From a virus (Duplodnaviria; Heunggongvirae; Uroviricota; Caudoviricetes): a DNA stretch of 64,000 nucleotides. This document shows, in pieces, positions 1,038 to 35,335 of this stretch. The notes beneath the pieces are model-generated. The model was not told where the DNA came from, searched no databases, and saw only the letters and a list, made by a program, of their open reading frames with translations. The stretch lies in IMG/VR virus record IMGVR_UViG_3300017971_000191; one strand, 5' to 3'. Numbering within the stretch: position 1 is the first letter of the stretch; the number at the start of each line of letters is the position of its first letter. Made by a program: the position numbers and the translations under genes.

Positions 1038-1400
1038 TCAGAGACTAGGCACTTGCCACTGCCGCAGCTCGTCAACGTCCTTGGTAAACCGCGGGGTTGC
1101 GATATGGCCGAAGCAGACCCGGTACTTGGGGCCACGGATGTACGTGTTCACGGGCAGGCACGCGAACGGAATCGTGTAGGCGGCATACCCCTCTTCGTCG
1201 ATGAAGTCGGGCTCCCGCACCTCGTCGGGTTTTAGCTGGTCCTTGATAGGATGGGCCGCCAGGATCTCGCGGATGTCCGGCAGCTCTTTCCAGGGCAATC
1301 CCTTCCGTTTAGGCGCGGGGCTCGGCGTGGCAGGCACCAGTGGTGCCATCACGGCCGCCGCCCCGGCAGCTAATGCTTTGAGGAAATCCCGCCGCCTCAT
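1038..1400 (-). CDS. exported (Tat signal RRRDFLKALAAGAAAVMA) protein whose C-terminal part is homologous to residues ~85-130 of the capsid-like protein 6070..7011
   Basis: ATG at 1398-1400 is preceded by AGGAGGAG and overlaps the upstream stop as ATGA. The motif TIPFACLPVNTYIRGPKYRVCFGHIATPRFTKDVDELR matches SIPFATLPVNLYIRGPRYRVMFDRIVTPRFTKDVDELR in 6070..7011. Confidence 0.55.
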   Translation of the reverse strand: MRRRDFLKALAAGAAAVMAPLVPATPSPAPKRKGLPWKELPDIREILAAHPIKDQLKPDEVREPDFIDEEGYAAYTIPFACLPVNTYIRGPKYRVCFGHIATPRFTKDVDELRQWQVPSL

Positions 1401-2050
1401 GTCTTCTCCTCCTGGACCTCGTCCACGGCAACTTCGGTGCATTTCATGCCGCGGAGCACGGAAACGTCGTCGTACGCCTGCCACTTCGGATCAATGTGGC
1501 GTCTGACGGGAAAGCCGGAGTTGGCGATTGGCGGATGATAACGAAGGAGGGCCGCCTGGATGCGCTCGTAGTCGTCCTTCTTGAGGGTCTTCCGCCGGGC
1601 ATCTCTGGTATAGGAACACGCCCGCCGAAGTTTCTGTCGGAACTCCTCGACGAGTTCCTCCTCGGTGCCCACCGAGACCTCAAACGCGATGGCCGCTTCC
1701 TTGGCACGCTGGAACTCACCGGTAGGCGGCTGGAGGCCGAAGTATTCGATCCAGTACCTCGGGTCCCGTGGCGCGGACGGCACAGTGGATTTGGGCCGGA
1801 TGAGATCCGGCCGAGGACAATCGAAGGCCAGCATGACGCCGCCCATCACGGCGACGAACAGCTCGTCGTCTTTCTTCGTCGCGGGGACCCGGTAGGTCGG
1901 AGTGCGGACGACGGCGTTTTCGGGGAGCAGGCTCTTGTGGAACTCCCCGAAGATCTCGGTCGTCTCCTCGGCAGTTGTCTGGCGCCGCGGGAAACCGCAC
2001 CAGGCCAGGACCGCACCGGCAGCGGCAGCAAAGAATCCACGCCTCTTCAT
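1397..2050 (-). CDS. secreted hypothetical protein (signal peptide MKRRGFFAAAAGAVLAWC)
   Basis: ATG at 2048-2050 with a GGAGA ribosome-binding site. The long N-terminal extension of ORF 1397..2524 in the track is rejected. Confidence 0.55.
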   Translation of the reverse strand: MKRRGFFAAAAGAVLAWCGFPRRQTTAEETTEIFGEFHKSLLPENAVVRTPTYRVPATKKDDELFVAVMGGVMLAFDCPRPDLIRPKSTVPSAPRDPRYWIEYFGLQPPTGEFQRAKEAAIAFEVSVGTEEELVEEFRQKLRRACSYTRDARRKTLKKDDYERIQAALLRYHPPIANSGFPVRRHIDPKWQAYDDVSVLRGMKCTEVAVDEVQEEKT

Positions 2051-2063
2051 CGTTCTCTCCTTC

Positions 2064-2978
2064 TCAGAAAAACACGCCTCCGTACGAGGAGCTGACGCTC
2101 CCGATACAGAGCTGCTGGTTGATCTCCAACTTCTTGTAGTCGACGAACTGCCTCCACTCATCCAGCAACATGGCGCCGACACGGAGGTACGGTTCCTCCT
2201 TCTTCTTGTCGTCGACGGCCACGCCGCCGGCGTTGTAGGGCAAGTGGTTCCGCCGGTAATTGGCGGCGGCGATCTCGTAGAGATGCCCGCAGATGGCCCG
2301 CAGCCAGTTCTCGCGGAAGGGGAAGTTCCGCGTGTCGATCTGCGGCCGGATCGGAGGCGGCCGACTGTTCCAGAACTGAAGAGGCCGGCCGATCGCCGTT
2401 GCGAGCACGTCGTCCCCGAACTCGATGTCGTCCAGCAGCAGGTTGTCGACGCCGCCCGTGTCGAGCACCGCCTGGCGAAGCTCCAGCACGGTCGGCGGGC
2501 CCAGGTTATGGGTCTCATCGTCACTGCCGAAGAGGCTCCGCTCGACCCAGAGCAGGCCCGCGTTGACGACCTTGATCTCGTTCTCTGCGTCGACCACGGC
2601 GAAGCTGAGCTGGTAGATCCCCGAGTTCCGCACCATCGTCGCCAGGGTGGGGAAGCGGGCGGTTCCTCCTGCGGCCGAGATTACCGTACCCTGCGTGCTG
2701 AGCAGGGGATTGGTGGAGCTGTTGACCGGGGCCACCAACTCCTTGGTTCGCAGCCAGACGGCCCCCTCGTCGGCCTGGGACTCCGAGACAGAATCGTTCC
2801 CACCAGCAGCGCCGGGGAACAACTCGCTGAGGTCGATAGGGTTGCCGGCGGCATCCCGGAAGGTATGCTCCAGGGTGGGTTTGATCCCAAGCTGGGTGAC
2901 GAAGATCTTCATCCGCGTCAACGCGGGGCAGTCCTCGACGTTAGGGATACTCGCCGTGATGGTCCCGAGTGTCGGCAT
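2064..2978 (-). CDS. hypothetical protein (possibly structural)
   Basis: ATG at 2976-2978 with an AGGAGA ribosome-binding site. Translation MPTLGTITASIPNVEDC... No family recognised. Confidence 0.45.
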   Translation of the reverse strand: MPTLGTITASIPNVEDCPALTRMKIFVTQLGIKPTLEHTFRDAAGNPIDLSELFPGAAGGNDSVSESQADEGAVWLRTKELVAPVNSSTNPLLSTQGTVISAAGGTARFPTLATMVRNSGIYQLSFAVVDAENEIKVVNAGLLWVERSLFGSDDETHNLGPPTVLELRQAVLDTGGVDNLLLDDIEFGDDVLATAIGRPLQFWNSRPPPIRPQIDTRNFPFRENWLRAICGHLYEIAAANYRRNHLPYNAGGVAVDDKKKEEPYLRVGAMLLDEWRQFVDYKKLEINQQLCIGSVSSSYGGVFF

Positions 2979-2988
2979 CGTGCCTCTC

Positions 2989-4206
2989 CTAAATCTGCTG
3001 CTTGCCGGGGTGACGCTGCCCCTTGAGTGCGACCAACTGGATTGTAGCATACCGCAGGTTGTGCTGGCGATGGAATTTGCTGGGGTAGCGCTCGATGCCC
3101 TGGACAAGCTGGTAGCGGCATTTCCGCCGCGGATTCCGGCAGAGATCCTTGTTGCAGTAGGGGAAGAAGCTGGCCGTCGTATGGTAGGACTTCGCGCCGT
3201 GGTACAGGAAGGCAGCCTGGGTGGTGGCGCTGGGGACGCTAATCTCCAGGTAGCCGCCGGGAACGAGCTTCTTGTAGGCCTCGTCCATGAACCGGGGGAC
3301 CTGGTCCCCGGGGAGGAACTGAAGAATGTCGTTGCAGACGATCAGCCCCACCGGGTCGTTGTAGGCCGTGGCGTACCATTTCAGCCAGTCGCTTGCCGTG
3401 GCCCCGAGCCGCTGTAGCTCCAAGGCCAGGTCAAGGATCATGTAGCCCTCGCGGCGGCACCACTCCCGCATCAACGGCCCGGCGTACTTGGTACGGTTCT
3501 TTTCCACCTGCTTCCAGAGATCGTTGCTGCGAGCCCGGTAGGTGTTGTTCTGGTGGAGCCGGTAGAGGTAGTTGCAGCCGCCGGTGTGGACGAACTTGTG
3601 CTTCCCCAGGTAGGTCCGGCAGATCAGGTCGTGGTCGTCACCCACGGACATGTCCTTGTCGTGGCCGCCCACGTTGTAGTAGGCATCCCGGCTCCACACG
3701 CGGACATGGTCCGGGGCGTAGTAGACCTCGCAGAGACAGCGCGGCGTCAACGGGAAGCACCGGTGGGCATTGAGCTGGCGGCCGTAGACCCGGATTGGGT
3801 AGTTGATCCAGTCGTGGGCCTCCCCGAGCTTGTGGGCCCCAAATCCGGGATGCCTGAAGTAGGCGGCGTCGGAGTAGACGAACCCGGCCCCATCGGCGAT
3901 GTGCTTGGCAATCGTCGAGAGCGTCGAGCCCGGCATGAGAGCATCGTCATGGTCCAACTCGATGAAGGCGTCCCCGTTGGACGAGTCACAAGCGTATCGT
4001 TTGATCGCCCCGATGTTGTGCAGGCTGTAGGCTCCTTCGCACACCCGGACCCGGGGGTCCTCCATAATGTGCCGGGGGATGGAGGAGTCGATCCCGTTGG
4101 GAGCTAGGACCCATTCCCAACTGTCGAAGTCCTGGTAGAGGAGCGACCGGTACGCTTCGTCGAGCCACGTCGGGTGGTGGGTCGGCGTGATGACCGAGAG
4201 GAGCAC
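2989..4206 (-). CDS. family-2 glycosyltransferase fused to a class I SAM-methyltransferase-like C-terminal domain
   Basis: The N-terminus LSVITPTHHPTW...DHDD is the GT-A/GT2 signature. The C-terminal part (LIVCNDILQFLPGD...LVPGGYLEISVP) resembles an AdoMet-methyltransferase motif. Confidence 0.55.
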   Translation of the reverse strand: MLLSVITPTHHPTWLDEAYRSLLYQDFDSWEWVLAPNGIDSSIPRHIMEDPRVRVCEGAYSLHNIGAIKRYACDSSNGDAFIELDHDDALMPGSTLSTIAKHIADGAGFVYSDAAYFRHPGFGAHKLGEAHDWINYPIRVYGRQLNAHRCFPLTPRCLCEVYYAPDHVRVWSRDAYYNVGGHDKDMSVGDDHDLICRTYLGKHKFVHTGGCNYLYRLHQNNTYRARSNDLWKQVEKNRTKYAGPLMREWCRREGYMILDLALELQRLGATASDWLKWYATAYNDPVGLIVCNDILQFLPGDQVPRFMDEAYKKLVPGGYLEISVPSATTQAAFLYHGAKSYHTTASFFPYCNKDLCRNPRRKCRYQLVQGIERYPSKFHRQHNLRYATIQLVALKGQRHPGKQQI

Positions 4207-4496
4207 TTCTTCGTTCCCTTCTTCTTGGTCCGGGTGAGCCGTTTCAGTGAGACGCCGCAGAACGGGCAGTAGTTGAGGATGATCCCTTTCGACCGGAACT
4301 CGCCGGAGTGCAGTACGGGGATGGGCCGCATATCGCCGTTCTCTGCGTCGAACAGGAAACGGCTAACAAGGCCTTGGCGACGTTGGCCGTCCTCGTAGGC
4401 CGTGGAAATGACGTCGCAGGGCTGCCATTCTCCCTTCTTGCTGAACGTGCAACGGGTCTTCTTGCACTTGGGTAGGGGCGTGTCTTTTTTAGCCAT
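4104..4496 (-). CDS. small zinc-ribbon protein (CxxC...CPFC)
   Basis: Translation MAKKDTPLPKCKKTRC...NYCPFCGVSLKRL. Its 3' part overlaps the GT2 gene start by about 100 nt in another frame, so the true stop is uncertain. Confidence 0.4.
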   Translation of the reverse strand: MAKKDTPLPKCKKTRCTFSKKGEWQPCDVISTAYEDGQRRQGLVSRFLFDAENGDMRPIPVLHSGEFRSKGIILNYCPFCGVSLKRLTRTKKKGTKKCSSRSSRRPTTRRGSTKRTGRSSTRTSTVGNGS

Positions 4497-4620
4497 TGGG
4501 GCCTCCGGGTTGAGATGCAAGTAGTCTACCCGGAGATCCCGAGGCCGGTCGAGACAGTTTCCAGAAAGCCGTCAGTTTCCTGGGCGAGAAAACGAGCCCA
4601 AACAGGAATACGTCGGCGCG

Positions 4621-4655
4621 CAAAAGGAGGGCAGGGCCACGTGACCCCGCCCTCC
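4621..4655 (-). terminator. GC-rich hairpin (GGAGGGCAGGG...CCCCGCCCTCC, loop CCACGTGA) followed on the minus strand by CUUUUGCGC
   Basis: An inverted repeat with a U-run lies just downstream of the stop of gene 4696..5040. Confidence 0.4.
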
Positions 4656-4695
4656 AAGGGGCAAGAGCAGGTTTTGTCGAAACGCTTGTTCCCGG

Positions 4696-5040
4696 CTACT
4701 CGGAGACCGAGTTGAGCCAGCAGGGATCGGTCGTGCCGAGCGTCCCGCCGTCGAGCTGGAGCATCTTCGACTCGTTGGTCGTAGCGTCCAGGAGGATCGG
4801 CGACGGAGTGTTGAGGATCTGGATGTCCCCGCGAGCCATCGCGGCCTCGAAGGCCACAATGTGACGCCGGCAGCCGACCCGCTCGTCCTTGATCACCGCC
4901 TCGCGCACGTCACCGTACACCGTGAACTCTTCGTCCGCGGCCAGCTCGCGCCCGTGGGGCGGCAGGAACCCGAATCGCTTTCGGACTCCGCTCGTATTCT
5001 TCACCGAAGAATACAAGCAGGTGGTATCGTAAGTGGGCAT
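4696..5040 (-). CDS. hypothetical protein, probably highly expressed
   Basis: Start context CAAGGAGGGTAACCCATG is nearly identical to that of gene 7092..7622. Confidence 0.5.
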   Translation of the reverse strand: MPTYDTTCLYSSVKNTSGVRKRFGFLPPHGRELAADEEFTVYGDVREAVIKDERVGCRRHIVAFEAAMARGDIQILNTPSPILLDATTNESKMLQLDGGTLGTTDPCWLNSVSE

Positions 5041-6069: not shown

Positions 6070-7011
6070 CTACTGGAAGTCGACGCGAGCCAGACCGCTG
6101 GTGTGACCGATGGTCCCACCCATAGTCTCGTACGCGAAGAACTCCAGCATGTAGGCCTCACGACGAATGTACATCGTCGTATCTTCCAAAACGAAACTTT
6201 TGCCGATGAACTTGGGATCGGCAAAGTGGTACATCGTGTTGGTCGGCACGAGGCCCTTTTTGATCGTGATGATCCACTTGTAGCCCATGAACTCCTGGAG
6301 GGTCCACCCGTTCCGCATGATGTCTGCGGAAATGTCCCCACCCATTTCGTTCCGGGTCTGCTTGCAGACCTCCTTGATCGTGATGTTGTTCAGGAGGATG
6401 CAGTGCACCTCCAGGTTGCTGGGCGTGTTGGGCATCACCTTCACCGAGTCCCAGAGGGTGTCTCGGGTGATCCCACCAGCGATGACCTCGTGCTGGACCA
6501 CGCCCGACGTGGGCACGGTCAGACCGGGGCCGACCAGCGCGGTGTTGACGGCACGGATGAACTTGCCGTCCTCTTCCGCCAACATGTCCTTGATGGCGTT
6601 GTCCGACAAAACCTGCCGGATGTCCATCACCCAGGTGCGCAGTTCGTCGACGTCCTTGGTGAACCGAGGAGTGACGATGCGGTCGAACATCACGCGGTAG
6701 CGAGGACCGCGGATGTACAGGTTGACGGGCAAGGTCGCGAAAGGAATCGAGATTGCCGCGGGGCTCTCCGGCTCCTTGTCGATGACCTTGACGGGCTTGT
6801 CCGTGTCCACCTGCCGGTCCAACTCATCGTTGCCGATGGGGATGGGCGGCATGATGCGACGGAAGAAGCCATCTTCCCTCATCTTGACCCGGGTGAAGTC
6901 GTTGACGGCATCCACCGCCTGCTTCTCCAGCACGGGGTCACGAGAGGACAGCTTCTCGAAGATCGCCTCGTTGAGGAGTTTGGACTCCTCCATCGTCATC
7001 TGGGCACTCAT
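6070..7011 (-). CDS. putative major capsid / structural protein, about 313 aa
   Basis: It sits downstream of scaffold-like acidic proteins and a putative portal. It has no signal peptide and no recognisable enzymatic motif. The capsid call is positional and low-confidence. Confidence 0.4.
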   Translation of the reverse strand: MSAQMTMEESKLLNEAIFEKLSSRDPVLEKQAVDAVNDFTRVKMREDGFFRRIMPPIPIGNDELDRQVDTDKPVKVIDKEPESPAAISIPFATLPVNLYIRGPRYRVMFDRIVTPRFTKDVDELRTWVMDIRQVLSDNAIKDMLAEEDGKFIRAVNTALVGPGLTVPTSGVVQHEVIAGGITRDTLWDSVKVMPNTPSNLEVHCILLNNITIKEVCKQTRNEMGGDISADIMRNGWTLQEFMGYKWIITIKKGLVPTNTMYHFADPKFIGKSFVLEDTTMYIRREAYMLEFFAYETMGGTIGHTSGLARVDFQ

Positions 7012-9581: not shown

Positions 9582-11081
9582 CTAAAGTGTAATGTGATTT
9601 TGCCGCGCACTCAACCGAGCTGTCAATGGGAAATCCGAATCGGAACACGCAATTCGCTGGAGTGCAGCCAGCTTGTAGATCGCATAGTCCCGAGCGAGTT
9701 CCTCGGCCTCGGGTTCGTCCGCAGCCGATTTCTCAAAACTACTCCGCACGTCCGGGGCCTTTTGGCCGCGGATTGACGCCAACATCGCCCGTTCCCGGAC
9801 GGCGTCCACGTCCAACGAATACTCCCTGGCCCCAAGGTTGGCCGCCGTACGAACCGCCGCAGAGGCCAGCTTCTCGGCCAGGGGGTACTTGTTTTGCTCG
9901 ATTCGACGCTCGATGGAGTCGTCGTCGATCATCCGCTGGTAGATCCCGGGCAGGTGCTCGGAGGCGGCCTTCACCAGGCCCTCTCCGTGCCCGAGCCAGC
10001 GGCCGAAGTCTCGAATGTGAAGGATGATCTTCCGGTCGGCCAAGGCCCCGAGATCCGCCGCACCCTTCTCCGAGCCGGGCTTTTCCAGCACGTCGACGTC
10101 GAAGGGGGACTGGGGCTCCAGGCCACAATAGGCCTCCGCCGAGCGCTGGGCCTCGATCGCCTCGCAGGAGGCCATTCCGTAGCCGAGCTTGATTTGGGCG
10201 GCGATCTTGGTGCTCCACTCCCCGGGCAGCCCGTCCTGGTACATGATGACCTGGATCGGAGCGGTATCCTGGGAGGCCAGCTCCGCAGCAGCCTTGAAGT
10301 CGAACACGCCGCCATCTGCCGCAGCCTTCTCGAAGTAGTTGGCCTTGGCCCCGGAGGCGATCCGGTCTGCCTGGCGGAAAACCCGGCTCATGTCGAACCA
10401 GGTGGGGAAGAGGTTCTTCACGCCCAGGTGGTGCATGTCTCCGGCGACCTTCACCACGCGGGTCAGATTGTCCTTGCAGCCGCCGGCCTTGCACATGCCG
10501 GGGGTGCAGTAGTCGTCGCGGCTCTTGGCCTGGTTGCCACAGAAGGTGCAGACATCGAAGGGGACACGGCAGGCCATCGACACCGGGAGATCGCCGTCGC
10601 GGGCGAGCTTCTCCAGCTCGATGTCGGCCACGAAGCCCCCGTTGCGATCGCAGGCGCTCTTCTCGGCGTTGAGCACGGCCAGCAGCTCCACCCGCTGCAT
10701 CTGCGGGTTCCAGGCCGAGGCCTTGATGATGCCGAAGTGGGGATGCCCCTTCTCGGGCTTGTTCTTGTGGTTGCGGAAGAACCGGGCGAACTTCACGAAG
10801 GTGGGATGGTACTTCTCGCAGGCACTCTTGGGGAAGCCGTCCCCGTTGCGGTTGATCCCGTACGCCTCCATGGCGCCCAGGGCGATGATGTGCAGGGGGA
10901 CCTCGTCCTTGGCGACCTTGATATTGTCCAGCACGTCAAGGAAGACGTGGGCGGCGCCGGCCGACTTGACGAAGTCAGCGCGGTCCGTCCCGATCAGCCC
11001 GCGGCTGGAACACTTCACGGGAACGACCACCGGTCGATCCCAGTCCCAACCTGCCGGTGAGACGTACTTGATCATGGACAT
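9582..11081 (-). CDS. hypothetical morphogenesis-module protein (499 aa) with a Cys cluster (CTFCGNQ...CTPGMCKAGGC); prohead protease candidate by position only
   Basis: It lies between the putative portal and the scaffold/capsid genes. No catalytic motif was assigned. Confidence 0.45.
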   Translation of the reverse strand: MSMIKYVSPAGWDWDRPVVVPVKCSSRGLIGTDRADFVKSAGAAHVFLDVLDNIKVAKDEVPLHIIALGAMEAYGINRNGDGFPKSACEKYHPTFVKFARFFRNHKNKPEKGHPHFGIIKASAWNPQMQRVELLAVLNAEKSACDRNGGFVADIELEKLARDGDLPVSMACRVPFDVCTFCGNQAKSRDDYCTPGMCKAGGCKDNLTRVVKVAGDMHHLGVKNLFPTWFDMSRVFRQADRIASGAKANYFEKAAADGGVFDFKAAAELASQDTAPIQVIMYQDGLPGEWSTKIAAQIKLGYGMASCEAIEAQRSAEAYCGLEPQSPFDVDVLEKPGSEKGAADLGALADRKIILHIRDFGRWLGHGEGLVKAASEHLPGIYQRMIDDDSIERRIEQNKYPLAEKLASAAVRTAANLGAREYSLDVDAVRERAMLASIRGQKAPDVRSSFEKSAADEPEAEELARDYAIYKLAALQRIACSDSDFPLTARLSARQNHITL

Positions 11082-26321: not shown

Positions 26322-29300
26322 CTACTGATCCAAAATCTGTACCTGGTCGTCCAGGGACAGCTTGCCGGCTGCGTAGGCCGCCCTGGCGTCGGCCAAAGTG
26401 TGAAACTTCCGCACCGATTGTTTGCTTCGTGACTTGGTGGCGTGGTAGAGACCGCCGACGAACTCCTGCCCGGGAGCATGCACCGGGGACTTGAAATCGG
26501 CCGGGCTGAGCAGGTTGGCCGAAGGCAGCATCCGCTCGTAGGCCTCCTTGACGGCCGCCGCGTCCGTGGGGACGTGGAAGTTCATCTGGTCGCCGTCGAA
26601 GTCGGCGTTGAACCCCTTGACAATCAGGGGGCTCACTTGCATCGTGCTCCCCTTCACCAGCTTGGGGCGGAAGGCGAGGATGCCAAACTTGTGCAGCACG
26701 GGGGCGCGGTTGATGAACACCGGCCGCTCGTCCATTTCCTCGACGAGCGTTTCCCGGGCCAGGGGGGTACGATCCTTGATCTGCTGGAGGGCCCGGGTCA
26801 GAGGAACCCCCTGTCGACGCATACGCCTGGCGATGAATTTTCCGTAAATATCGAAGGCCGCATCCTCGGGCAGGCCCACCGTGTCCATGTCGAAATCGGG
26901 GTTGGGGGTGATCACGGACCGGCCGACGTTGTCCACTGTCGTGGAGATCAGCTTACGCTGCACGGTGCCGAACTTGGGAGAGCTTCCAAAAACGCTTTTG
27001 AGGATTCCCCGCACGTTCTTCTCGCGGCTCTTCTGGCTGATCGGATCTCCCAGGCCGGTGACTGCCTTGAAGGCGTGGTAGACGGCCAGCCGCTCCGGGC
27101 CAGCACCCTCGTCCCCCAGCTCCTTCTTCATGGCCGCCAGGTTATCGTTGGCCTCCATCAGCTCCTTGTAGAGGTAGTTGGCGTCGGAGATCATCGGCAG
27201 GTCGTTGTCCATCATCGAGACCGGGCGGAACGCCGGCGGCAGCACCGGGGCCCGCTTCAACACCCAGTCGCCAGGATGGATACCGAGCTTCTTGGCCCGC
27301 TTGAGATAGTCGAGCTTGCGGACAGCTTGGTCCCTCTCCGTCTTGCTGCCTTGCGAGACTTGGGCCCTTGCCATGGACAACTCTTTGTCCAAGTTGAGGG
27401 CTTGCAAGGCTTTACCGATGGCCTGGGCGCCGGTGCCGAACTTGGGCAGCTCATGGTCCCCGGAGATGACGGCCTCGAACTTGGCCTTGGTCAGCCCGAG
27501 CACGCGACGGATCGGCTCCTCCATCACCGGATTGGGCATCGGCTCGGTCAGGCGGATCGCAGACCATCGCCGACCGGAGTGGCCGCCGGTGAGCTTCTTG
27601 TCGAACAGACCGCCCCGGATGGGACGCAGGCCCCGGCCCCAATCGACGCCGTCGTTCTTCATCAGGTTGCGATCCCCGGCCAGCTCGTCGACGTCCTTGT
27701 CGGTCAGCGCCATGATGTTCGTCTGCGTGCCCTCGCGGACGACGTTGATCCCCGAGGCCCGGAGTTGCTCGACGAATTTATGGTAGGCCATCGGCACCCG
27801 AGGCATCGGCGGGTTGTGCCCCATCATGAACTGGAGCCAGTAGTCCTCGTTCCGCTGACCACGAATGGCGCCCACGTCTTCCAGGTTGTGGACCGCTCCA
27901 TGGCTAAGCAGGGCGTTGGTGTCCAGCAGGGCGACTCGCTTGGAACCTTGCTTGCCGCCCTTGGCCGGGGCGTCCTCGGCCGTGTAGGCGCCGCCGCCTC
28001 GTCCCTGCTCCTTGGCTTCTGCTTGATGGTGGAGCTTCATGAAGAAGCGATTACCGGTAGGGATGCCGCGGATCTTGGAGTCGTTGCTAGGGTCGATGAT
28101 GTCCTCGGTGTCCGACAATCCGGCCTTGCGGAGCTGCTCGCGGGCCCAATCCACGTAATCGCGGCTGTCGTCCCAATCCTCGACCCGAATCGGCTTGCCC
28201 TGCTTGGCAGCCAACTTGCCCAACCACAGCTCGATCTTTTGCGACGGATTGGTCCGGCCGATAATCCCCAGCGGATTCAGCAGCACCTCGAAAGGCTTCC
28301 CGTCCTGCCCCTGCGGCATCTGCGCGTCGGGGATGATCGCGGAAATGACGCCCTTGTCTCCGTATCGTCCTGAGAGCTTGTCTCCCTTTTGCATGGGAGA
28401 CGTACTCTTGACGAGGACCACCGGCCCTTTCTTGCCGTCAACAACGTCGGTAACGATTCCGGGATCGTTATGATCCCAGACAATACTATGATCTGCATGG
28501 GACGCCTGCTTCCTCTTGTGGACCTTGTTGTGCGACAGCTCCCGCTGGCGTGCCGCCAAGATCAACGGATGCCCCTTCTCGACCTCGGTTCCCGGTTTGA
28601 CGACTCCGCGGTCGTCCAGCGTCTCCAGGATCTTGCGCTCGTATCGGGACGGAAACAGGCTGACATAGGTCTTCTTACCGATCTTCGTTCTGTCGTCGAC
28701 CTCCAGCTCATTCTGGTACATGTGCTCCGAGGCCAGCTTCTTGGCAAAACCCTCGGAGATCACGATGGCGTCTTCGTGGTTTTTCCCCTGCCAGGAGACG
28801 TAGGCCACCCGGGCGTTGCGGCCCAGGGCCGTGGCGCCGCGCTCGTCGGTGTAGTTCGAGCGGGCCAGCAAGGCACCAGGAGCAAACCTCTGGCCGGGCC
28901 GGACCAGGGGTGTCTGGTGCAGGTATGTCTTCCGGTTGAAAGGGAAATGGTGGTACAGCTCGATGCTGTCCTCGCTGCCGTCGTCGTAGCGGACCTTCAT
29001 GCCGTCGTCGTCGATACCCAGCACCCGGCCGCCGCGTTTGGCGTGAACCGCCCCCATCTGCTTGGCGTACTCCTCCTCGTAGCTTCGGCCGCCACGGGTC
29101 CCGGGCATCGCCGACTGGACCCAGGGGGACTCAGGCTCGACCAGGGGCAGCGCCTGGGTGAGCATCCGCGAGGCCATGGCCATCCGCTGCCCCTTGACGG
29201 CGCCCTTCATGGGGACCAGGTTGCCCAGCGGGGAGAAGGCGTCCTCGAAATTGGGCATCACCAGGTTGACGTCCCGCTTCTTGGCCCAGATCATCTTGCT

Positions 29301-30764
29301 GCCCTTCATGGCGATCACCCGCTTTCCGGGGCGGGCCAGCGCTCTGGGGAAGGTGATCACCGAGTCGGCAACATCCTGCGGAGAAAGCCACTTCAGCTTG
29401 CCGCTACGGGGGTCCTTGAACTGCGTGTAGATCCGGCCGTTCTTCCCCTTGCGGGCGTTGCGGGTCATGTAGACGTCCACGCCCACACGAAAGCTCTCCG
29501 GCGTGCGTAGCGGGTCCACGAACCCGAAGTGGCTGGGTTGCACGCTACGGGCCTCCGCGGGCACGGCATCTAGCGAGGGGATACCTCCTTCTCCGAGCCG
29601 GCTGATGGAGTATTGCTTGTCGAAGATCTCGGCGGGGTTGATTTCCTCCAGGGGCTGTCCGAGACCTGAGTGCAAGATTGCAGACTCGACCTGTGGCCGT
29701 AGGGCTGAAGAAGGCATGCCCGAGAGGTTACCCTTGCGGGCGGCCTTCCAGAGAAGCTGGCGGCGGAGCCGACCGTGGTCCTTGGCAATCCTCTCCGCCA
29801 GAAGATCCTCCGGGCCCAGGAAATGCTGGTACGCCAGAGAATCACGGTCATCCACATCAGCCTCGTCGCGAGAAATAGCAAGTAGCTTTCGAGTCGTGTC
29901 AAGGATGGCCTCCTTGCTCATGCGATCGTACGGTTTTCCCAGGGTACGCCCGGTGACCTCGGGGTCCAGCTCCATCGAGGTCCAACGATCGACGAGCTTC
30001 TGCGCCGTCGTCCGCTCCTCGTCCTCCTGGTCGGCGCGGGTCAGCACGTGTCCCGCGTACTTCTTGATGGCGGCACCTTCATCCTTCGGATAGTTGGCCG
30101 CATACAGGTCGTCGCCCCAGATCTCGCGAAGCTCCGCGGGAGTCGCTCCCATCGCTTTAAGAAGCGGCATGAGGGGGAGCTTGGCGTTGTGGAGCCGAAC
30201 GTAGAAAACGCCCTTCTCAGGATCAAGAAAGTAGCGATGAGACACCCCTTTTCCAGGAAGGATGTTCGCATGGGCTTCGATCTCTCCATTTTCACGGACA
30301 CGAGTGAAGACACCGCCCCGCAGCCGCTGCTGGTTGCGAAGCGTATTCTCGTTGCCCCTATGGACGAACGTCCCCCGGGGCGTCAGATGCGGGACCGTGG
30401 CCACGACCTGGCGACGGCGATCCAGCACGCCGCCGGTCTCGTTGTCGACGAGTTCCCAGGTACCACGCAATCGCCGGCCGAGAGTTCGGCCGCCGAGGAT
30501 GGCTTCCTTCTGTTGGCGCAGGGTGAAGGTGTCCGGGTCCTGCCAGTCCACCTTGCTGAGCCGCAGGGTGTGGGTCTGATTTGAGACCGGCTCGATCCCC
30601 TGGGCCGCTACCAGCACCTGATCATAGATGTTGCGGCGCGTGGCGTCAGTGTCTCCGAACTCCCGTGTCTCCTCGTCAGTGGGAGGTGGAGCGGCAACAG
30701 GTGCAGGTGCCCCCGACAGCAGATTGGACGGCGTCGGCGGCATCAGGTTCAGATCGAGCGGCAT
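26322..30764 (-). CDS. fused RNA polymerase subunit: a compact beta subunit joined to the N-terminal half of beta-prime
   Basis: Beta-subunit motifs: RGTFVHRGNENTLRNQQRLRGGVF and GDKLSGRYGDKGVISAIIPDAQMP...LLNPLG. Beta-prime motifs: VLPPAFRP and RAPVLHKFGILAFRP...NADFDGDQMNFHVP. Confidence 0.8.
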   Translation of the reverse strand: MPLDLNLMPPTPSNLLSGAPAPVAAPPPTDEETREFGDTDATRRNIYDQVLVAAQGIEPVSNQTHTLRLSKVDWQDPDTFTLRQQKEAILGGRTLGRRLRGTWELVDNETGGVLDRRRQVVATVPHLTPRGTFVHRGNENTLRNQQRLRGGVFTRVRENGEIEAHANILPGKGVSHRYFLDPEKGVFYVRLHNAKLPLMPLLKAMGATPAELREIWGDDLYAANYPKDEGAAIKKYAGHVLTRADQEDEERTTAQKLVDRWTSMELDPEVTGRTLGKPYDRMSKEAILDTTRKLLAISRDEADVDDRDSLAYQHFLGPEDLLAERIAKDHGRLRRQLLWKAARKGNLSGMPSSALRPQVESAILHSGLGQPLEEINPAEIFDKQYSISRLGEGGIPSLDAVPAEARSVQPSHFGFVDPLRTPESFRVGVDVYMTRNARKGKNGRIYTQFKDPRSGKLKWLSPQDVADSVITFPRALARPGKRVIAMKGSKMIWAKKRDVNLVMPNFEDAFSPLGNLVPMKGAVKGQRMAMASRMLTQALPLVEPESPWVQSAMPGTRGGRSYEEEYAKQMGAVHAKRGGRVLGIDDDGMKVRYDDGSEDSIELYHHFPFNRKTYLHQTPLVRPGQRFAPGALLARSNYTDERGATALGRNARVAYVSWQGKNHEDAIVISEGFAKKLASEHMYQNELEVDDRTKIGKKTYVSLFPSRYERKILETLDDRGVVKPGTEVEKGHPLILAARQRELSHNKVHKRKQASHADHSIVWDHNDPGIVTDVVDGKKGPVVLVKSTSPMQKGDKLSGRYGDKGVISAIIPDAQMPQGQDGKPFEVLLNPLGIIGRTNPSQKIELWLGKLAAKQGKPIRVEDWDDSRDYVDWAREQLRKAGLSDTEDIIDPSNDSKIRGIPTGNRFFMKLHHQAEAKEQGRGGGAYTAEDAPAKGGKQGSKRVALLDTNALLSHGAVHNLEDVGAIRGQRNEDYWLQFMMGHNPPMPRVPMAYHKFVEQLRASGINVVREGTQTNIMALTDKDVDELAGDRNLMKNDGVDWGRGLRPIRGGLFDKKLTGGHSGRRWSAIRLTEPMPNPVMEEPIRRVLGLTKAKFEAVISGDHELPKFGTGAQAIGKALQALNLDKELSMARAQVSQGSKTERDQAVRKLDYLKRAKKLGIHPGDWVLKRAPVLPPAFRPVSMMDNDLPMISDANYLYKELMEANDNLAAMKKELGDEGAGPERLAVYHAFKAVTGLGDPISQKSREKNVRGILKSVFGSSPKFGTVQRKLISTTVDNVGRSVITPNPDFDMDTVGLPEDAAFDIYGKFIARRMRRQGVPLTRALQQIKDRTPLARETLVEEMDERPVFINRAPVLHKFGILAFRPKLVKGSTMQVSPLIVKGFNADFDGDQMNFHVPTDAAAVKEAYERMLPSANLLSPADFKSPVHAPGQEFVGGLYHATKSRSKQSVRKFHTLADARAAYAAGKLSLDDQVQILDQ
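26986..27004. repeat. degenerate copy of the palindromic motif (CCAAAAACGCTTTTGAGGA), in the CDS and translated ILKSVFG
   Basis: Imperfect match; weak. Confidence 0.25.
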
Positions 30765-30775: not shown

Positions 30776-31618
30776 TCAAGCGGCCTCTTCTTCGACGTCC
30801 ACCGGTACCGGGACGGCGTGGATTTCCGCAGGCTGCGTGGCGTACGCCCGACGACGGCGGCGTTCAAGAGCCTTCTTGAGGACGTTCTTCCGCTGTCGCT
30901 TGCGCGCTGCGCTGTAGGCAAACCAGCCGGCCATCAAGCTGGCCGGCACGGCGTAGTACCCGTAGGTTCCCAGAGTGGCCCCTGCCGTGTCCGGGTTGAA
31001 GAGCGCTTGCTTCTCCATGCAGAGATCGTAGAGGGCGTCCAGGTCGGCAGCCAGCTTCTCCATCGGCTCGTCGCTGCTGATCTTGACCGGCTCGTCGTAC
31101 TGGCCCACCAGGGCCCCACGGAAGCGCTCCCGCTCCCGTTCCACCTGGGAGTCGACCTCTTCCTTGCGGCGCTTGTCGAGGATCTTGTCGACCAGGTGCC
31201 AGCCGAGACCTCCAGCCGCCAGTCCGCCGACCATCGCCGCCGGCTGGTACCAGGGGATGCCGATCGGCGTGGTGGCTTTGTTGCCCTTGAAGAAGTCGCC
31301 AAGCCAGCCAGCGGCCTTCGCCAGCTCGGGCTCTTCCTCCTCGTCTTCCTTGGCGGGGACGGGCAGCGGCAGAGGTGAGACGGCCGGGTAAGTCGGCTTT
31401 CGCGTGCGGACGTTTCGCCGGACAAGGTTGAGCAGCCCGTAGATACCGCGGGCTCCCGCACCGGCTCCGGCCGAGATGACGGCGATGCGGCCCAGGTCCT
31501 TCAACGCCTGGGTCTTGAGGTTCCGGGTGGCCGCTTCCTGAAGGACGGCGACCGGGTCCGTGGCCTCCTTTTCCTGGCGCACCTCGTCAATGATGCGCTG
31601 GGATACTTTGCTGTCCAT
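30776..31618 (-). CDS. hypothetical protein
   Basis: 280-aa ORF. Confidence 0.45.
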   Translation of the reverse strand: MDSKVSQRIIDEVRQEKEATDPVAVLQEAATRNLKTQALKDLGRIAVISAGAGAGARGIYGLLNLVRRNVRTRKPTYPAVSPLPLPVPAKEDEEEEPELAKAAGWLGDFFKGNKATTPIGIPWYQPAAMVGGLAAGGLGWHLVDKILDKRRKEEVDSQVERERERFRGALVGQYDEPVKISSDEPMEKLAADLDALYDLCMEKQALFNPDTAGATLGTYGYYAVPASLMAGWFAYSAARKRQRKNVLKKALERRRRRAYATQPAEIHAVPVPVDVEEEAA

Positions 31619-32000
31619 AGCTGATTGTCCCTCCTGGACCTATCGCAGCCTGTGCGGGCTGACCGTCTTCGAGGAAGTATTCCGCCCACTCGATGTAGAC
31701 GACATGCTGCCCCCGCTTCTTCGACCTCCAACGCTCGACGAAGAGCAACTGTGCCCAGTTGTTGAGGATCTTGTCGAGCACGTCGAGGTAAGCCTTGTTC
31801 TCCTCCTTGATCCACGTACGAAACGTACCATTCTGCGGATCGGCCACCCGGACGACCCGCGAGTCGAACTCCGCCTCCGTGAAGAACGGGGGGCTGGCGC
31901 CGCGGAAAGGCAGACCGTCGACGTCGGCCCGACCCCAGTACAGCTTTCCGCGCCCATTCCCTTCCGTCCTCGCTGCAAACTTAACCAGGCTGTTTGCCAT
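31587..32000 (-). CDS. hypothetical protein
   Basis: 137-aa ORF. Confidence 0.45.
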   Translation of the reverse strand: MANSLVKFAARTEGNGRGKLYWGRADVDGLPFRGASPPFFTEAEFDSRVVRVADPQNGTFRTWIKEENKAYLDVLDKILNNWAQLLFVERWRSKKRGQHVVYIEWAEYFLEDGQPAQAAIGPGGTISYGQQSIPAHH

Positions 32001-32009
32001 AAGTTCACG

Positions 32010-32420
32010 CTACAGGAACACTCGTCCTGTTTGCTTGCGACGAGCCCGGTACTCCCGCATGGCTCGCTGCCTCAGCAAACGTGCCGTTTGGCGTCGGTAC
32101 TCGTCGGCGACCTCCTGTTTCTTTACTTCCTCGGGGTCCTGGTCATCGACATCCGTGGCTTTGGCCAGGCCGTAGCCGGCGACTCCGCCGAGGATTGGCG
32201 GGGCCGCGATGGCGAGAGGCAACCCGTAGCTCAGCAACGGTGCGGCGACCGCCTTGCCGGCTTCCAGGGCCTTGACGGGGATACTGGTGATGTCCCCGAC
32301 GATCCCGCCCATCTTGTCCATGGCTTCCTTGACGCGCTCGTGGGCCTCTTCGAGAGTCAGACCCTCTTCCACGCAACGGCTGAGGAAACCAACCTTGAAC
32401 GCATCTCGTGAGCTGAGCAT
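32010..32420 (-). CDS. hypothetical protein
   Basis: ATG (MLSSRDAFKV) chosen; the upstream Arg-rich extension is rejected. Confidence 0.4.
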   Translation of the reverse strand: MLSSRDAFKVGFLSRCVEEGLTLEEAHERVKEAMDKMGGIVGDITSIPVKALEAGKAVAAPLLSYGLPLAIAAPPILGGVAGYGLAKATDVDDQDPEEVKKQEVADEYRRQTARLLRQRAMREYRARRKQTGRVFL

Positions 32421-32430
32421 CCTTGCCTCG

Positions 32431-32817
32431 CTACAACTGGTATTGGGAGCCGGAGCCGGGCATGACCACCGTCTTCTTACGCCGGCGGAGCCTGTCCTTG
32501 ACGGCATCCTTGTCGGTGGGCATCCCCTGTTCCCGTGCCTTCTGGGCCAGGGCGACTCCCTCCTCGATAAACTTCTGCTGCCGATCGACGTCGATGCCGA
32601 TCTGCTTGCCGACCTGACGATCGCCCCTGATCATCTGGTTGATGGCGTTGAGCCGCTCCAGAAACTCGCGGACCGACAGCGACTCGTACTCTCCAGTGTC
32701 CCGGTCTTCGTGGTGGACCAGGCCGTTCTCGGCCCAGTACCGGTCGCGTTTCTGATTGTCGCGGGGCCCAAAGTAGATGACCTTGTGCTGGCCGCCGAGC
32801 AAGGGGACCTTCGCCAT
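32431..32817 (-). CDS. hypothetical protein
   Basis: 128-aa ORF. Confidence 0.45.
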   Translation of the reverse strand: MAKVPLLGGQHKVIYFGPRDNQKRDRYWAENGLVHHEDRDTGEYESLSVREFLERLNAINQMIRGDRQVGKQIGIDVDRQQKFIEEGVALAQKAREQGMPTDKDAVKDRLRRRKKTVVMPGSGSQYQL

Positions 32818-32835
32818 CCCTGGCTCCTTCCATGG

Positions 32836-33300
32836 TTAGAACTGGTAGATGAAGAAATTCCCTTTCTTCGCTTGGTGGGGAATCGGAAGCCGGTGCATAT
32901 AGCTGATGACCTTCACCCCGCGACATCGTTGGAGTTTTGGGGTGAGTTCACGCACCAGCGGCATCGGCAGGTACATATAGTAGACCGTGGCCGGCAGCTT
33001 CTCGAAGTCCACCTCGCGGAGATCCTTGCGATAGACCGCGACGAGGCTACCCAGTTTGTTGAACCTGACGTTCTCCTGAGCGTGCCGGACCTTATCGACG
33101 TCGTAGTCGATTCCGACTGCCTTGCACCCGTACCGCTTGGCTGCAAACACGCACAGCCGGCCGTCCCCGCAACCCAGGTCGTAGAAGACGTCCTTCTCGT
33201 CCAGGTCCGCCAGGGCGAGCGCCGTGTAGCACTCATTCACCGGCGTCGGGGCATCGGGTTGTGCGCCGAGTACGGCACAGAGGACAAGGGCCAGGTACAT
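32836..33300 (-). CDS. secreted class I SAM-dependent methyltransferase (signal peptide MYLALVLCAVLGAQP)
   Basis: LGCGDGRL is a glycine-rich AdoMet motif I. The start overlaps the upstream stop as ATGA. Confidence 0.5.
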   Translation of the reverse strand: MYLALVLCAVLGAQPDAPTPVNECYTALALADLDEKDVFYDLGCGDGRLCVFAAKRYGCKAVGIDYDVDKVRHAQENVRFNKLGSLVAVYRKDLREVDFEKLPATVYYMYLPMPLVRELTPKLQRCRGVKVISYMHRLPIPHQAKKGNFFIYQF

Positions 33301-34157
33301 CAGTAGCAACCTCCTCCGTAACACATGGCGCAGGCCGCGTTGCCGCAACCGCCGCCGGACATCATCATCCCGCCGCCGTAGTAGCCGCCGTAGGATTGAG
33401 ACGGCATCGCGTAGCTCTGACTCGGATACGACGACTGCAACGGCATCCCGCCATAGTAGGTGCCGCCGGATGCGACGGCACTGGATTGCGGGCACATCCC
33501 CGTGCCCTGATACGGGCAGGAGGCACAGTTGCCGTCGCACTGGATGCCGGAGCCGTTGCCCAAGCGGTAGGACCCGTCCGCCGTCACGTACATCGGCGTA
33601 GTCGAGTAGGCCAGGCCGCTTGCCTTCAGCGCAGTCTGCTTTACCCCGAGTTTCACGGCGATCCACCTGAACTGGGACTGCTCCATATTACCGCAGCCCG
33701 TCCAGCGACAGATCTCGTTCCCCTCGGAGTGCAAGATGAGGGTGGGGACCAATTCGATCTTCCAGTCCCTGGCCAGCTCGGCATGCGCGGGGTTAGCCGT
33801 GTTGCCGAACTGGACATCGTAGCCTTCGGCCGCAAGCCGTTTCAGCATGGGCTTGACTTTTTCGCAAGGCGGGCAACCCTCACCGCACCACAGCAACATC
33901 GTAGGCGGCGAATCTGCGGCCTCGATCTTGGCGAAAATCGTGTCCCAGCTTGTTTTGGCACGCTGCTCGGTAGTCCTGGTCTGTTCCTGGACGATTTGAG
34001 CGCTCCTCTGCGGCGAGAAGAGGCCCCAGTTGTCGCTGGCCATCGCCAGCATGGAGGGGACCTCAGCTCGGCTTGCCGGACTGATGAGGAACCCCAAGAG
34101 CAGAATCGTAGAAACTACCGTAGCGATACATAGACCGACATTCTTTGGAGAGGACAT
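33300..34157 (-). CDS. secreted thioredoxin-like protein (WCGEGCPPC) with a C-terminal Gly/Tyr/Cys/Met-rich tail
   Basis: N-terminal signal/transmembrane segment, CxxC active-site motif, and a tail ending GGGCGNAACAMCYGGGCY. Confidence 0.5.
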   Translation of the reverse strand: MSSPKNVGLCIATVVSTILLLGFLISPASRAEVPSMLAMASDNWGLFSPQRSAQIVQEQTRTTEQRAKTSWDTIFAKIEAADSPPTMLLWCGEGCPPCEKVKPMLKRLAAEGYDVQFGNTANPAHAELARDWKIELVPTLILHSEGNEICRWTGCGNMEQSQFRWIAVKLGVKQTALKASGLAYSTTPMYVTADGSYRLGNGSGIQCDGNCASCPYQGTGMCPQSSAVASGGTYYGGMPLQSSYPSQSYAMPSQSYGGYYGGGMMMSGGGCGNAACAMCYGGGCY

Positions 34158-34755
34158 GGCGAACCTCCTTTTCCGTGATCAGCACATCCTGCGCATACCA
34201 GCGCCGATGAGCCTCGTGGGCGTCCCAGGTACTACATGCTGGGATCTTTCGGTGCCACTCAATATACAGCGCATCACGGGCCTGGAGGAAGTCCGAAACG
34301 TCCGGTGGGCCGAGGAGCCCCGGGGCCCCACGACGGAGGGCCGCTTCCCTGTCGGCTAAAAGAAAGAACTCATAATCCTCGTCGGCCAGCCGCTGACGAA
34401 GATCCCGGTTGATCCGGACCCTCTGGAGGATCAGACTCGGCGTGATCGCCATGACGGCTCGGAGGTAGCGGAGACAGTCGTGGATCTCCTTCCGCATGGC
34501 GGGCTCGTAGAGCCAGATTTTCTCGCCCTGCTTGACCGGAGGGAGAAGGAGGATCTCGAAGGCAATCCCACAGGCCTCCCGGGCCATCAGCTCCTCCTCG
34601 GTCGGGGCCAGCACGTCCGCCAGGGAGATGCGCTCAAACGACCGGGGCGGCGCGGCGACGGAGCTTTCCGATTTTTCGGTTGCGGCTCGCAAGGCTGTTG
34701 CAGGCCATGCTAACAGGGAGAGAATCCCTGCCTTCAAGCAGTCTCGTCGCTTCAT
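34063..34755 (-). CDS. Tat-signal (MKRRDCLKAGILSLLAWPATALRA) exported hypothetical protein
   Basis: Twin-arginine motif followed by a hydrophobic segment and an AxA cleavage-like site. Confidence 0.45.
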   Translation of the reverse strand: MKRRDCLKAGILSLLAWPATALRAATEKSESSVAAPPRSFERISLADVLAPTEEELMAREACGIAFEILLLPPVKQGEKIWLYEPAMRKEIHDCLRYLRAVMAITPSLILQRVRINRDLRQRLADEDYEFFLLADREAALRRGAPGLLGPPDVSDFLQARDALYIEWHRKIPACSTWDAHEAHRRWYAQDVLITEKEVRHVLSKECRSMYRYGSFYDSALGVPHQSGKPS

Positions 34756-35335
34756 TCTTCTGCTCCTCGTCGACAATGAACTCGATACGGTTGCCATCCA
34801 CAGCGGTCACGACGGCGGAAAAGTCCCCGACCGACGCGCCGAAGTCGATACCGGCGCTGAAATTGATCTTGTCGCCCGGTTTCACGCCGCCCGCCAGCAA
34901 GGGCTCCGACGTGATGATCGGCGGCAGGATGGTCGACTTGCTCACGTAGACCTTGTTCGGGTGGGCCACCTGGTCCAGCTCGTCGTTGGAGATGGGAACT
35001 GGCGGGAGAATCCGGCGGAAGAAACCATCTTCTCGCATTTTTACCCTCGTGAAGTCGTTGACGGCATCCATGGCCTCCTTTTCCATCACAGGATCGCGAG
35101 AGCAGAGCTTCTCGAAGATCGCCTCGTTGAGGAGCTGCGTGTCGCTCGGCGACATCGTCACCGGTTTCTTCTCGGGCAACCACAGCGCAGGAGGTACCGC
35201 CACGGAGACGCCGATCGCTCCGATGGCCTTGAGGAAGCCCCGCCGCTGCATCAGGAACAGCTCCTGCTCGCTGTCGGAGAGCTTCTCGCGGCCGAAGCCG
35301 AAGAACTGCTTGATAAGACCCCAGTTGACGTTCAT
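34634..35335 (-). CDS. Tat-signal exported chimeric protein whose N-terminal region duplicates residues ~11-66 of the capsid-like protein 6070..7011
   Basis: The signal RRGFLKAIGAIGVSVA is followed by LLNEAIFEKLCSRDPVMEKEAMDAVNDFTRVKMREDGFFRRILPP, about 87% identical to the 6070..7011 region. Shared 20-27-nt DNA identities show a recent duplication. Confidence 0.55.
   Translation of the reverse strand: MNVNWGLIKQFFGFGREKLSDSEQELFLMQRRGFLKAIGAIGVSVAVPPALWLPEKKPVTMSPSDTQLLNEAIFEKLCSRDPVMEKEAMDAVNDFTRVKMREDGFFRRILPPVPISNDELDQVAHPNKVYVSKSTILPPIITSEPLLAGGVKPGDKINFSAGIDFGASVGDFSAVVTAVDGNRIEFIVDEEQKNEATRLLEGRDSLPVSMACNSLASRNRKIGKLRRRAAPVV

Follow-up and report, generated by a model that had tools for sequence, protein, structure and literature searches.

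Two genes of an uncultured jumbo phage join predicted twin-arginine signals to different pieces of its major capsid protein

Why should a tailed phage place pieces of its capsid protein behind a signal for export from the cytoplasm? This question is raised by two genes, here termed gene A (1038..1400) and gene C (34634..35335), in a stretch of 64,000 nucleotides (the window) from the IMG/VR virus record IMGVR_UViG_3300017971_000191. It had been proposed from the letters of the window alone (the original prediction) that each of these genes joins a twin-arginine (Tat) signal to a different, adjacent piece of a capsid-like gene at 6070..7011. BLASTP comparisons, a hidden Markov model (HMM) of 81 major capsid proteins (MCPs) and the Tat profile TIGR01409 uphold this description, and the parts of the three genes were delineated as follows, using in addition an AlphaFold2 (AF2) model and the GC content at third codon positions (GC3):

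6070..7011, minus strand: MCP of 313 aa with the HK97 fold, donor of the copied pieces (homology, fold matches, gene order)
6796..6999, minus strand: MCP aa 5-72, predicted N-arm, with helices at 7-22 and 26-46 and then an extended stretch; copied in gene C (alignments, AF2)
6631..6759, minus strand: MCP aa 85-127, predicted E-loop hairpin region between the N-arm and the spine helix (H137-158); copied in gene A (alignments, HK97 element order)
34634..35335, minus strand: gene C, 233 aa, with a leader, a Tat signal, a copy of the N-arm and an unrelated tail (BLASTP, HMM, GC3)
35252..35335, minus strand: gene C aa 1-28, leader (MNVNWGLIKQFFGFGREKLSDSEQELFL) that precedes the twin arginine; also conserved in the proteins P0002, P0111, P0219 and P0231 (alignment)
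35162..35251, minus strand: gene C aa 29-58, with the motif MQRRGFLKA, a hydrophobic region and then a conserved LW(L/R)P (TIGR01409, family alignment)
34952..35155, minus strand: N-arm copy in gene C (aa 61-128; 72% identity, HMM)
1038..1400, minus strand: gene A, 120 aa, with a Tat signal, a linker and a copy of the MCP E-loop (BLASTP, Tat profiles, GC3)
1311..1400, minus strand: gene A aa 1-30, twin-arginine signal MRRRDFLKALAAGAAAVMAPLVPATPSPAP, with a possible VPA/T cleavage site (VPA|T) by eye
1221..1277, minus strand: gene A aa 42-60, possibly copied from MCP aa 130-148, at the start of the spine helix (BLASTP)
1056..1184, minus strand: E-loop copy in gene A (aa 73-115), in which the positions of MCP T93 and M108 are cysteines

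In tblastn comparisons the donor protein aligned with the protein annotated as MCP in Salmonella phage Arash (2e-31, 95% coverage), with three Vibrio phages and, over 99% of the length, with the major head protein of Bacillus phage G, gp27. Its residues 76-310 also matched the chain 6wkk_A, which is gp27 in the solved phage G capsid structure (PDB 6WKK), with an E-value of 3e-4 in phmmer, and the whole protein matched PHROG 2522 ('major head protein') at 9e-5. The AF2 model, computed from 46 sequences, had an overall predicted local distance difference test score (pLDDT) of 56.7 and reached confidence in the core alone (aa 140-265). The top matches to this model that Foldseek gave in the PDB were all HK97 MCPs, including lambda gpE, YSD1, the ICP1 capsid and jumbo phage S6, but they were weak (best 8.7e-3, probability 0.90). 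The order of the head-module genes around the MCP is kept in 80 IMG/VR relatives of 155-235 kb. Judged from homology, with the weaker fold matches in agreement, 6070..7011 is thus a true HK97-fold MCP, and the identity proposed for the donor is borne out by phage G gp27, the Arash MCP, PHROG 2522 and the HK97 proteins at the top of the fold matches. We found nothing in favor of the alternative, raised in the original prediction, that the three products are simply members of a secreted protein family with no capsid protein among them. It is contradicted by the full-length homology to gp27 and the Arash MCP, the fold matches, the conserved position in the head module and the lack of a signal peptide in the MCP itself, and it can practically be dismissed.

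The AF2 model of the MCP shows two helices within aa 7-46 and a long spine helix at aa 137-158, with a pLDDT below 50 over aa 43-135. The copied segments lie mostly inside this region that AF2 cannot order in the monomer, and they overlap the most conserved part of the MCP, since the densest invariant columns fall within aa 20-148. Following the order of elements in the HK97 topology, the gene C segment would correspond to the N-arm and that of gene A to the E-loop. In HK97 both are extended arms, which become ordered only against neighboring subunits and hold the capsid lattice together.

The copied piece in gene C (aa 61-128) matches MCP aa 5-72 with 49 of 68 residues identical (72%, E 1e-32). 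The more similar block within MCP aa 11-66 noted in the original prediction was recovered, but its identity, given there as about 87%, is 84% in protein and 81% in nucleotide sequence. In gene A, aa 73-115 match MCP aa 85-127 with 33 of 43 identical residues (77%, E 2e-21). When the HMM built from the 81 MCPs was run against a six-frame translation of the window, it matched the MCP, gene C (positions 3-65, 8e-25) and gene A (positions 75-122, 1.6e-18), and nothing else in the six frames; an all-against-all BLASTP of the window open reading frames (ORFs) likewise yielded no other strong paralogy, leaving the MCP as the sole donor of duplicated pieces there. A further short segment of gene A (aa 42-60) resembles MCP aa 130-148 (42% identity, BLASTP E 0.003) and precedes the E-loop copy, in swapped order; taken alone it reached no significance against the MCP profile (i-E 33). 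The two chimeras match 48- and 63-position parts of a 305-position HMM, and neither has a complete HK97 fold, the core formed by the A- and P-domains being missing. Because this folded core is absent and only contact arms are present, genes A and C are, as far as sequence can tell, not capsid proteins, and their products cannot build a shell.

Tat signals were called with the cut-offs of TIGR01409 (16.7 bits) and Pfam TAT_signal (PF10518; 22.7 bits), together with inspection. The signal-peptide check that had been suggested places both genes above the TIGR01409 cut-off, and gene A above the Pfam cut-off as well. Gene A opens with MRRRDFLK and scores 22.8 bits with TIGR01409 and 23.5 bits with the Pfam model, its twin-arginine motif and hydrophobic region reading MRRRDFLKALAAGAAAVMAPLV. 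Gene C scores 17.6 bits with TIGR01409 and 14.0 bits with PF10518, the latter below the cut-off; its twin-arginine motif MQRRGFLKAIGAIGVSVAV begins at aa 29 and is followed by a hydrophobic region, and the RR, F, L and G of the motif are invariant in the alignment of the gene C family. Both genes conform to the Tat pattern of S/T-R-R-x-F-L-K and then an uncharged hydrophobic stretch close to the N-terminus. On these sequence features we consider both products to be probably exported. The 28-residue leader of gene C is kept in its homologues, and the long form is therefore probably real. A remnant of a ribosome-binding site before M61, common with the MCP, which would have indicated a leaderless isoform of gene C, was looked for and not seen. 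An LW(L/R)P motif follows the hydrophobic region (~35162..35185) in gene C, P0002, P0231 and P0194, where it replaces the typical AxA site. GC-rich composition is an unlikely source of false Tat motifs, as the contigs with chimeras range from 50 to 66% GC and the starts have good ribosome-binding sites.

Gene A is preceded by a GGAGGAG ribosome-binding site, its start overlaps the stop of the upstream gene X1 in an ATGA, and its GC3 is 0.77. Gene C has a GC3 of 0.81 overall and 0.88 in its leader, falling to 0.65 in the last 54 codons (aa 180-233), where the frame is shared with the next gene, X2. With the exception of this end, GC3 lies in the coding-type range of 0.75-0.90 in all parts of A, X1 and C, leaders and parts not derived from the MCP included. 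Given the strong ribosome-binding sites, the ATGA coupling of X1 and A and the coding-like GC3, A and C are real genes. Both chimeras come from an uncultured jumbo phage of ~236 kb, of which they are accessory genes: unchanged gene C, gene A and MCP proteins were found on contigs of up to 236,137 bp. The gene C protein occurs in identical form on 7 contigs from JGI, ENA and Logan assemblies, and it is therefore a jumbo-phage gene and not an assembly artefact.

The exact DNA identities of 20-27 nt between gene C and the MCP gene had been taken to show a recent duplication. The 27-mer quoted there does occur in exactly two copies (6952..6978 and 35108..35134; 0 expected), and the longest exact run is 29 nt, but the inferred age does not follow: dS between copy and MCP is ~1.1 for both genes, and the 29-nt run has a P of ~0.05-0.06 given the overall identity, making it marginally unusual. 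Moreover, the DNA identity of gene C is 0.81 to its own MCP gene versus 0.79 to that of phage L008. A recent duplication or a gene-conversion tract is thus unsupported. The dN/dS ratio is 0.08 for the core of the gene C segment, 0.18 for the full segment and 0.19 for gene A. Assuming an even split of synonymous changes and nearly all replacements on the copy, omega on the copy branches is ~0.15-0.4, and in gene A 18 replacements are seen against ~38 expected under neutrality. In view of the dS, the low dN/dS and the fact that the MCP of L008 is nearly as close to gene C as the MCP of its own phage, these estimates indicate that the duplication is old and that the copies are constrained as proteins by purifying selection.

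Do other phages have such genes? We searched 1.84 billion representative proteins with MCP aa 1-135 using HMMER and obtained 794 matches, of which 268 proteins were classified. Ordinary MCPs account for 188 of these, and many others are truncated at contig ends. With regard to the search for the same chimeras in metagenomic data that the original prediction had recommended, MCP pieces behind a Tat-like RR leader were seen in at least 11 distinct clusters. Their architectures after the leader include:

P0174, P0231, P0197: N-arm and E-loop
P0194: E-loop and N-arm, in swapped order
P0172: C-terminal strand, N-arm and E-loop
P0267: E-loop only, like gene A but independent of it

Other mosaics have an N-out/C-in membrane anchor (P0163, P0184) or an unknown N-terminal domain (P0155, P0177, P0217 and an ORF of locus L024) in place of the Tat-like leader. 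For every chimera the N-arm has its closest match in the MCP consensus (52-79%), and the other chimeras are more distant. By sequence this pattern fits a faster yet constrained divergence from a very slowly evolving parent, and repeated capture is also possible. A search of IMG/VR, metagenome and genome contigs with the alignment of the gene C family returned almost only ordinary MCP genes or MCPs cut at contig ends, and one extra mosaic, in L024 (the same as L096).

The surroundings of A and C bear on whether they belong to the core of the phage. The genes concerned, along with a third locus in the window with a Tat-like start, are:

165..1022, minus strand: conserved core gene, one flank of the X1/A slot, with a homologue in 61 of 81 loci
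1397..2050, minus strand: X1, 217 aa, an orphan whose start MKRRGFF is Tat-like only on inspection and whose translation is coupled to that of gene A
2064..3107, minus strand: conserved core gene, other flank of the X1/A slot
32431..32817, minus strand: conserved 128-aa gene, one flank of the gene C island
33300..34157, minus strand: thioredoxin-fold protein (PF00085), 285 aa, with a CPPC motif, a tail rich in Cys, Gly and Tyr, and an N-terminus that is hydrophobic and signal-like
34063..34755, minus strand: X2, 230 aa if the start is MKRRDCLK (GAGGAG 7 nt upstream)
35418..35879, minus strand: conserved 153-aa gene, other flank of the gene C island
52303..53304, minus strand: protein E, 333 aa, Tat-like at its start (DSRRGFLTKCLGGLAIPLGLGASAVAVDA) and the third such locus, beside sugar-modifying genes

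In L004, L010 and L030 the homologues of 165..1022 and 2064..3107 directly adjoin, leaving the X1/A slot empty; in L002 the slot contains small membrane proteins, and in L024 the MCP N-arm mosaic that has no Tat motif. The slot of the gene C family lies between the 153-aa and 128-aa genes, on the path from the ribonucleotide reductase to the RNA polymerase, and in the window it is occupied by an island of four genes, namely C, X2, the thioredoxin-fold protein and a methyltransferase. Positional counterparts of gene C are P0111 (L001), P0231 (L248/249, 10 contigs) and P0219 (L250/251, 6 contigs), so that the family is kept in place across phages whose core proteins are only 43-67% identical. 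The ribonucleotide reductase, used as an anchor, drew in mostly unrelated phages, with L255-L259 usable; in these five IMG/VR relatives the slot is empty. The 153-aa neighbor, used as an anchor in IMG/VR, found no relatives. Because the slots between conserved core genes are empty or differently filled in relatives, A and C are dispensable accessory genes in hot spots. A consensus scan of 32500..36200 for promoters or terminators of their own gave counts no higher than in shuffled sequence.

Searches of Pfam, PHROGs and PADLOC returned nothing for A, C, X1, X2 and E apart from the Tat profile, and nothing for the large non-Tat mosaics; PADLOC at E <= 0.01 had no match for A, X1, X2, C, E, the thioredoxin-fold protein or the MCP. 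In an index of 5.8 billion proteins gene A and X1 each matched only themselves. Against the MCP profile X1 gave a weak, insignificant E-loop-like match (hhalign P 0.019, probability 2.4%), and X2 (P 0.3) and E (P 0.16) had no significant similarity. X1 is preceded by an AAGGAG ribosome-binding site.

The explanation that we tentatively prefer, at somewhat less than an even chance, is that A and C are accessory proteins that are exported, present capsid contact arms outside the cytoplasm and serve in phage-phage or phage-host conflict. In each gene a Tat signal is joined in frame to a single piece from the N-terminal third of the MCP of the same phage, with C supplying the N-arm and A the E-loop, perhaps along with the start of the spine helix. 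The host Tat pathway would bring the products to the cytoplasmic membrane or the periplasm, where they might mimic the contact arms and bind whatever normally recognizes them. The partner could be a host factor, the MCP, or a protein of a related phage that is either ejected or located inside the virion. The likeliest role would be in conflict; like other accessory proteins that phages export, the products might for example exclude related superinfecting phages or sense them. Action at or beyond the membrane is favored by the leader, the likely signal-bearing neighbors, the accessory distribution and a gain of cysteines in the MCP-derived segments (0.83 per 100 aa in chimeras vs 0.18 in MCPs), although this excess is modest and the sequences are not independent. 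A more specific version, which we regard as unlikely, is that a clade of jumbo phages has repeatedly made capsid contact arms into Tat-exported mimics, a counterpart of the hepatitis B virus e antigen (HBeAg), which trap or sense components of superinfecting virions in the periplasm, or carry a capsid-binding protein, such as an immune sensor or a rival MCP, out of the cytoplasm as a Tat hitchhiker.

Several observations weigh against the exported-mimic explanation. The capsid of an infecting phage remains outside the cell, and we know of no periplasmic partner for capsid arms. The Tat calls come from two HMMs and inspection, and export itself is predicted. In gene C a long stretch precedes the twin arginine and an AxA cleavage site is not obvious, for which reason its product may instead stay in the membrane as an uncleaved anchor. 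AF2 gave an uninformative model for gene C (pLDDT 45.6), with no predicted structure in the tail. Despite their Tat-like starts, X1, X2 and E match neither Tat model (TIGR01409, PF10518). The signal-encoding start of X2 overlaps the end of gene C by 122 nt (34634..34755), and the JGI gene call for X2 begins 47 nt after the gene C stop (at M57), skipping the leader; the signal-encoding start of the thioredoxin-fold gene similarly overlaps the end of X2 by 95 nt (34063..34157) and is uncertain. Finally, most relatives have no such genes, and the chimeras are hence dispensable.

The same data can be read in other ways. The chimeras might be decoys against immunity that bind a capsid-sensing host defence in the cytoplasm, either competing with the MCP or dragging the sensor out through Tat. 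MCPs and MCP peptides are known to trigger defences, and Tat can export a partner that has no signal. Like typical anti-defence genes, the chimeras occur sporadically and in variable slots, and residues conserved in MCPs are kept in the copies. However, the export signal would take such a decoy away from the compartment of the known capsid sensors, no sensor is known for this phage group, and none of the PADLOC models shows similarity. Action outside the cytoplasm is favored over a purely cytoplasmic decoy by the export signal and by the neighbors that probably bear signals, and we consider the anti-immunity explanation as a whole quite unlikely. A role in assembly or packaging, in which the arms join capsomers or scaffold while the leader tethers the procapsid to the inner face of the membrane, or in which the arm is a capsid-targeting tag for a packaged protein, would suit the nature of the arms as lattice-contact elements and the location of gene A inside the structural module. 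T4 proheads start on the membrane and N-arms contact the scaffold in P22-like systems, and the N-out/C-in anchors of P0163 and P0184 would leave the MCP-like parts in the cytoplasm. Yet a twin-arginine leader implies export or an N-in/C-out topology, and in either case the arms end up across the membrane from where assembly would need them, and many chimeras (P0174, P0197, P0267) have no cargo beyond the arms. The absence of these genes from most relatives with the same head module further indicates that they are not a core part of assembly, and we hold such a role to be decidedly improbable.

Least likely of these three, and in our view very improbable, is that the chimeras are functionless, neutral by-products of illegitimate recombination, in which partial copies of a highly expressed gene came to lie behind existing leaders. 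A and X1 are indeed orphans, P0111 in L001 looks partly decayed, and stops are rare in GC-rich DNA, so that open frames persist. The suggestion of neutral debris in the original prediction nevertheless fails against the dN/dS of 0.08-0.19 at a dS of ~1.1, with the correspondingly low omega of the copy branches and the deficit of replacements in gene A. The gene C relatives held at the same position across diverged phages, the 11 clusters with a common design, and the coding-type GC3 and ribosome-binding sites speak in the same direction.

Among characterized systems, the nearest known analogy to A and C would be the hepatitis B virus precore protein, the source of HBeAg, in which a signal peptide precedes the capsid protein; the product is secreted and does not assemble, and an extra cysteine locks it in that form. 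In both cases a signal is joined to part of a capsid protein, and the product leaves, or in the phage would leave, the compartment of assembly and cannot form capsids, which for A and C is deduced from the missing core; the phage chimeras have also gained cysteines. HBeAg differs in being a product of the capsid gene, initiated at a start further upstream, and in using the eukaryotic endoplasmic reticulum route with the whole assembly domain, whereas A and C are separate genes with a bacterial Tat signal and contact arms only. An immune-modulating role of A and C would be hypothetical. Full-length MCP paralogues, such as the T4 vertex protein gp24 and the MCP homologues with which satellites redirect capsid size, also arose by duplication of an HK97-fold MCP gene within a phage or mobile element; unlike A and C, they are complete HK97 folds that enter the shell, and they have the A-/P-domain core and no export signals.

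Phage proteins of exclusion and sensing that are exported, including T4 Imm and Sp, the periplasmic antiholin RI, P22 SieA, HK97 gp15 and the Cor/Llp lipoproteins, resemble A and C in being small and dispensable, with signal sequences, variable slots and action at the envelope. We found no sequence similarity between them and A or C, PADLOC included, and to our knowledge none of them is capsid-derived or has a twin-arginine signal. Capsid-derived triggers of host immunity are known from the T4 Gol peptide, which acts with Lit, and from the sensing of MCPs by CapRel or PifA. These show likewise that a short part of an MCP suffices for recognition by another protein, but they are peptides within a normal MCP that are used by the host, whereas here the fragments are encoded separately by the phage and have an export signal. 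Tat export of hitchhikers, as in hydrogenase-2 (HybO/HybC) and DmsA/DmsB, offers a parallel in that a protein with a Tat signal binds a cytoplasmic partner, and capsid arms bind partners by nature; the known hitchhikers are cofactor enzymes, and the binding by A and C is putative.

We found no prior description of such phage genes in the literature searched, the coverage of which was incomplete. If export is real, these would be, as far as we found, the first phage proteins that send pieces of a capsid protein out of the cytoplasm, and capsid contact surfaces would have a second use away from the virion. The chimeras could then represent a new class of phage-phage or phage-host conflict proteins, provide naturally occurring minimal peptides for binding to HK97 capsid subunits, and serve as a case study of new genes built from fragments of an essential and highly conserved gene.

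In the gene C island, the overlaps of C with X2 and of X2 with the thioredoxin-fold gene are unusually long for genes on the same strand, and each encodes the putative signal of the downstream gene; in the C/X2 overlap GC3 is intermediate in both frames (0.65 and 0.61). The thioredoxin-fold protein matches PF00085 with 31.8 bits (cut-off 23.5) and has a long C-terminal tail that includes …CDGNCASCPYQGTGMCP…GGGCGNAACAMCYGGGCY. It may be an exported oxidoreductase if its N-terminus is real, or, if an internal start is used, a reductant for the nearby ribonucleotide reductase. Protein E combines its Tat-like start (~53280) with CxxC…CxxC zinc-ribbon-like motifs. Beside it, 53848..55673 (minus strand) encodes a GDP-mannose 4,6-dehydratase and glycosyltransferase-like genes, which suggests that the phage modifies envelope sugars. 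The flanking gene 165..1022 encodes a 285-aa protein of the structural module with a zinc-finger-like CxxC…CxxC…GTGF motif and no Pfam or PHROG match.

The window as a whole is ~63% GC, with nearly all coding-like ORFs on the minus strand, and its other products include the ribonucleotide reductase, methyltransferases, sugar-modifying enzymes and a fused RNA polymerase of the multisubunit type. The latter (26322..30764, minus strand) is a single chain of 1480 aa that unites Rpb2-type (beta) and Rpb1-type (beta-prime) domains and is 57-67% identical in relatives. ARAGORN detected one tRNA-like gene at 53548..53624 (minus strand), its anticodon being undetermined. Relatives of the window MCP occur in metagenome-assembled genome bins assigned to Nanopelagicales, Gemmataceae and Nannocystaceae, which are unreliable as evidence of the host.

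Among the relatives, P0111 (L001 8630..9655) contains an in-frame piece like the MCP C-terminus (EFFAYETVG) and, at L001 9501..9620, an out-of-frame piece that corresponds to MCP aa 230-269 and has an Arg-rich tail behind it, which suggests a frameshifted or decaying larger MCP paralogue. The non-Tat mosaics P0155, P0177, P0217 and the L024 ORF (13617..14663) have a common N-terminal region with a PNRNGD motif; a segment EDIRAWGR(N/D)E in them resembles the MCP A-domain segment ITIKEV..RNEMGG, with no Pfam match, and they may be scrambled MCP paralogues. In L008 (3409..7299) the homologue of 9582..11081 of the window, a 499-aa protein probably of the head module, is split into three separated blocks, which suggests the insertion of introns, inteins or mobile genes.

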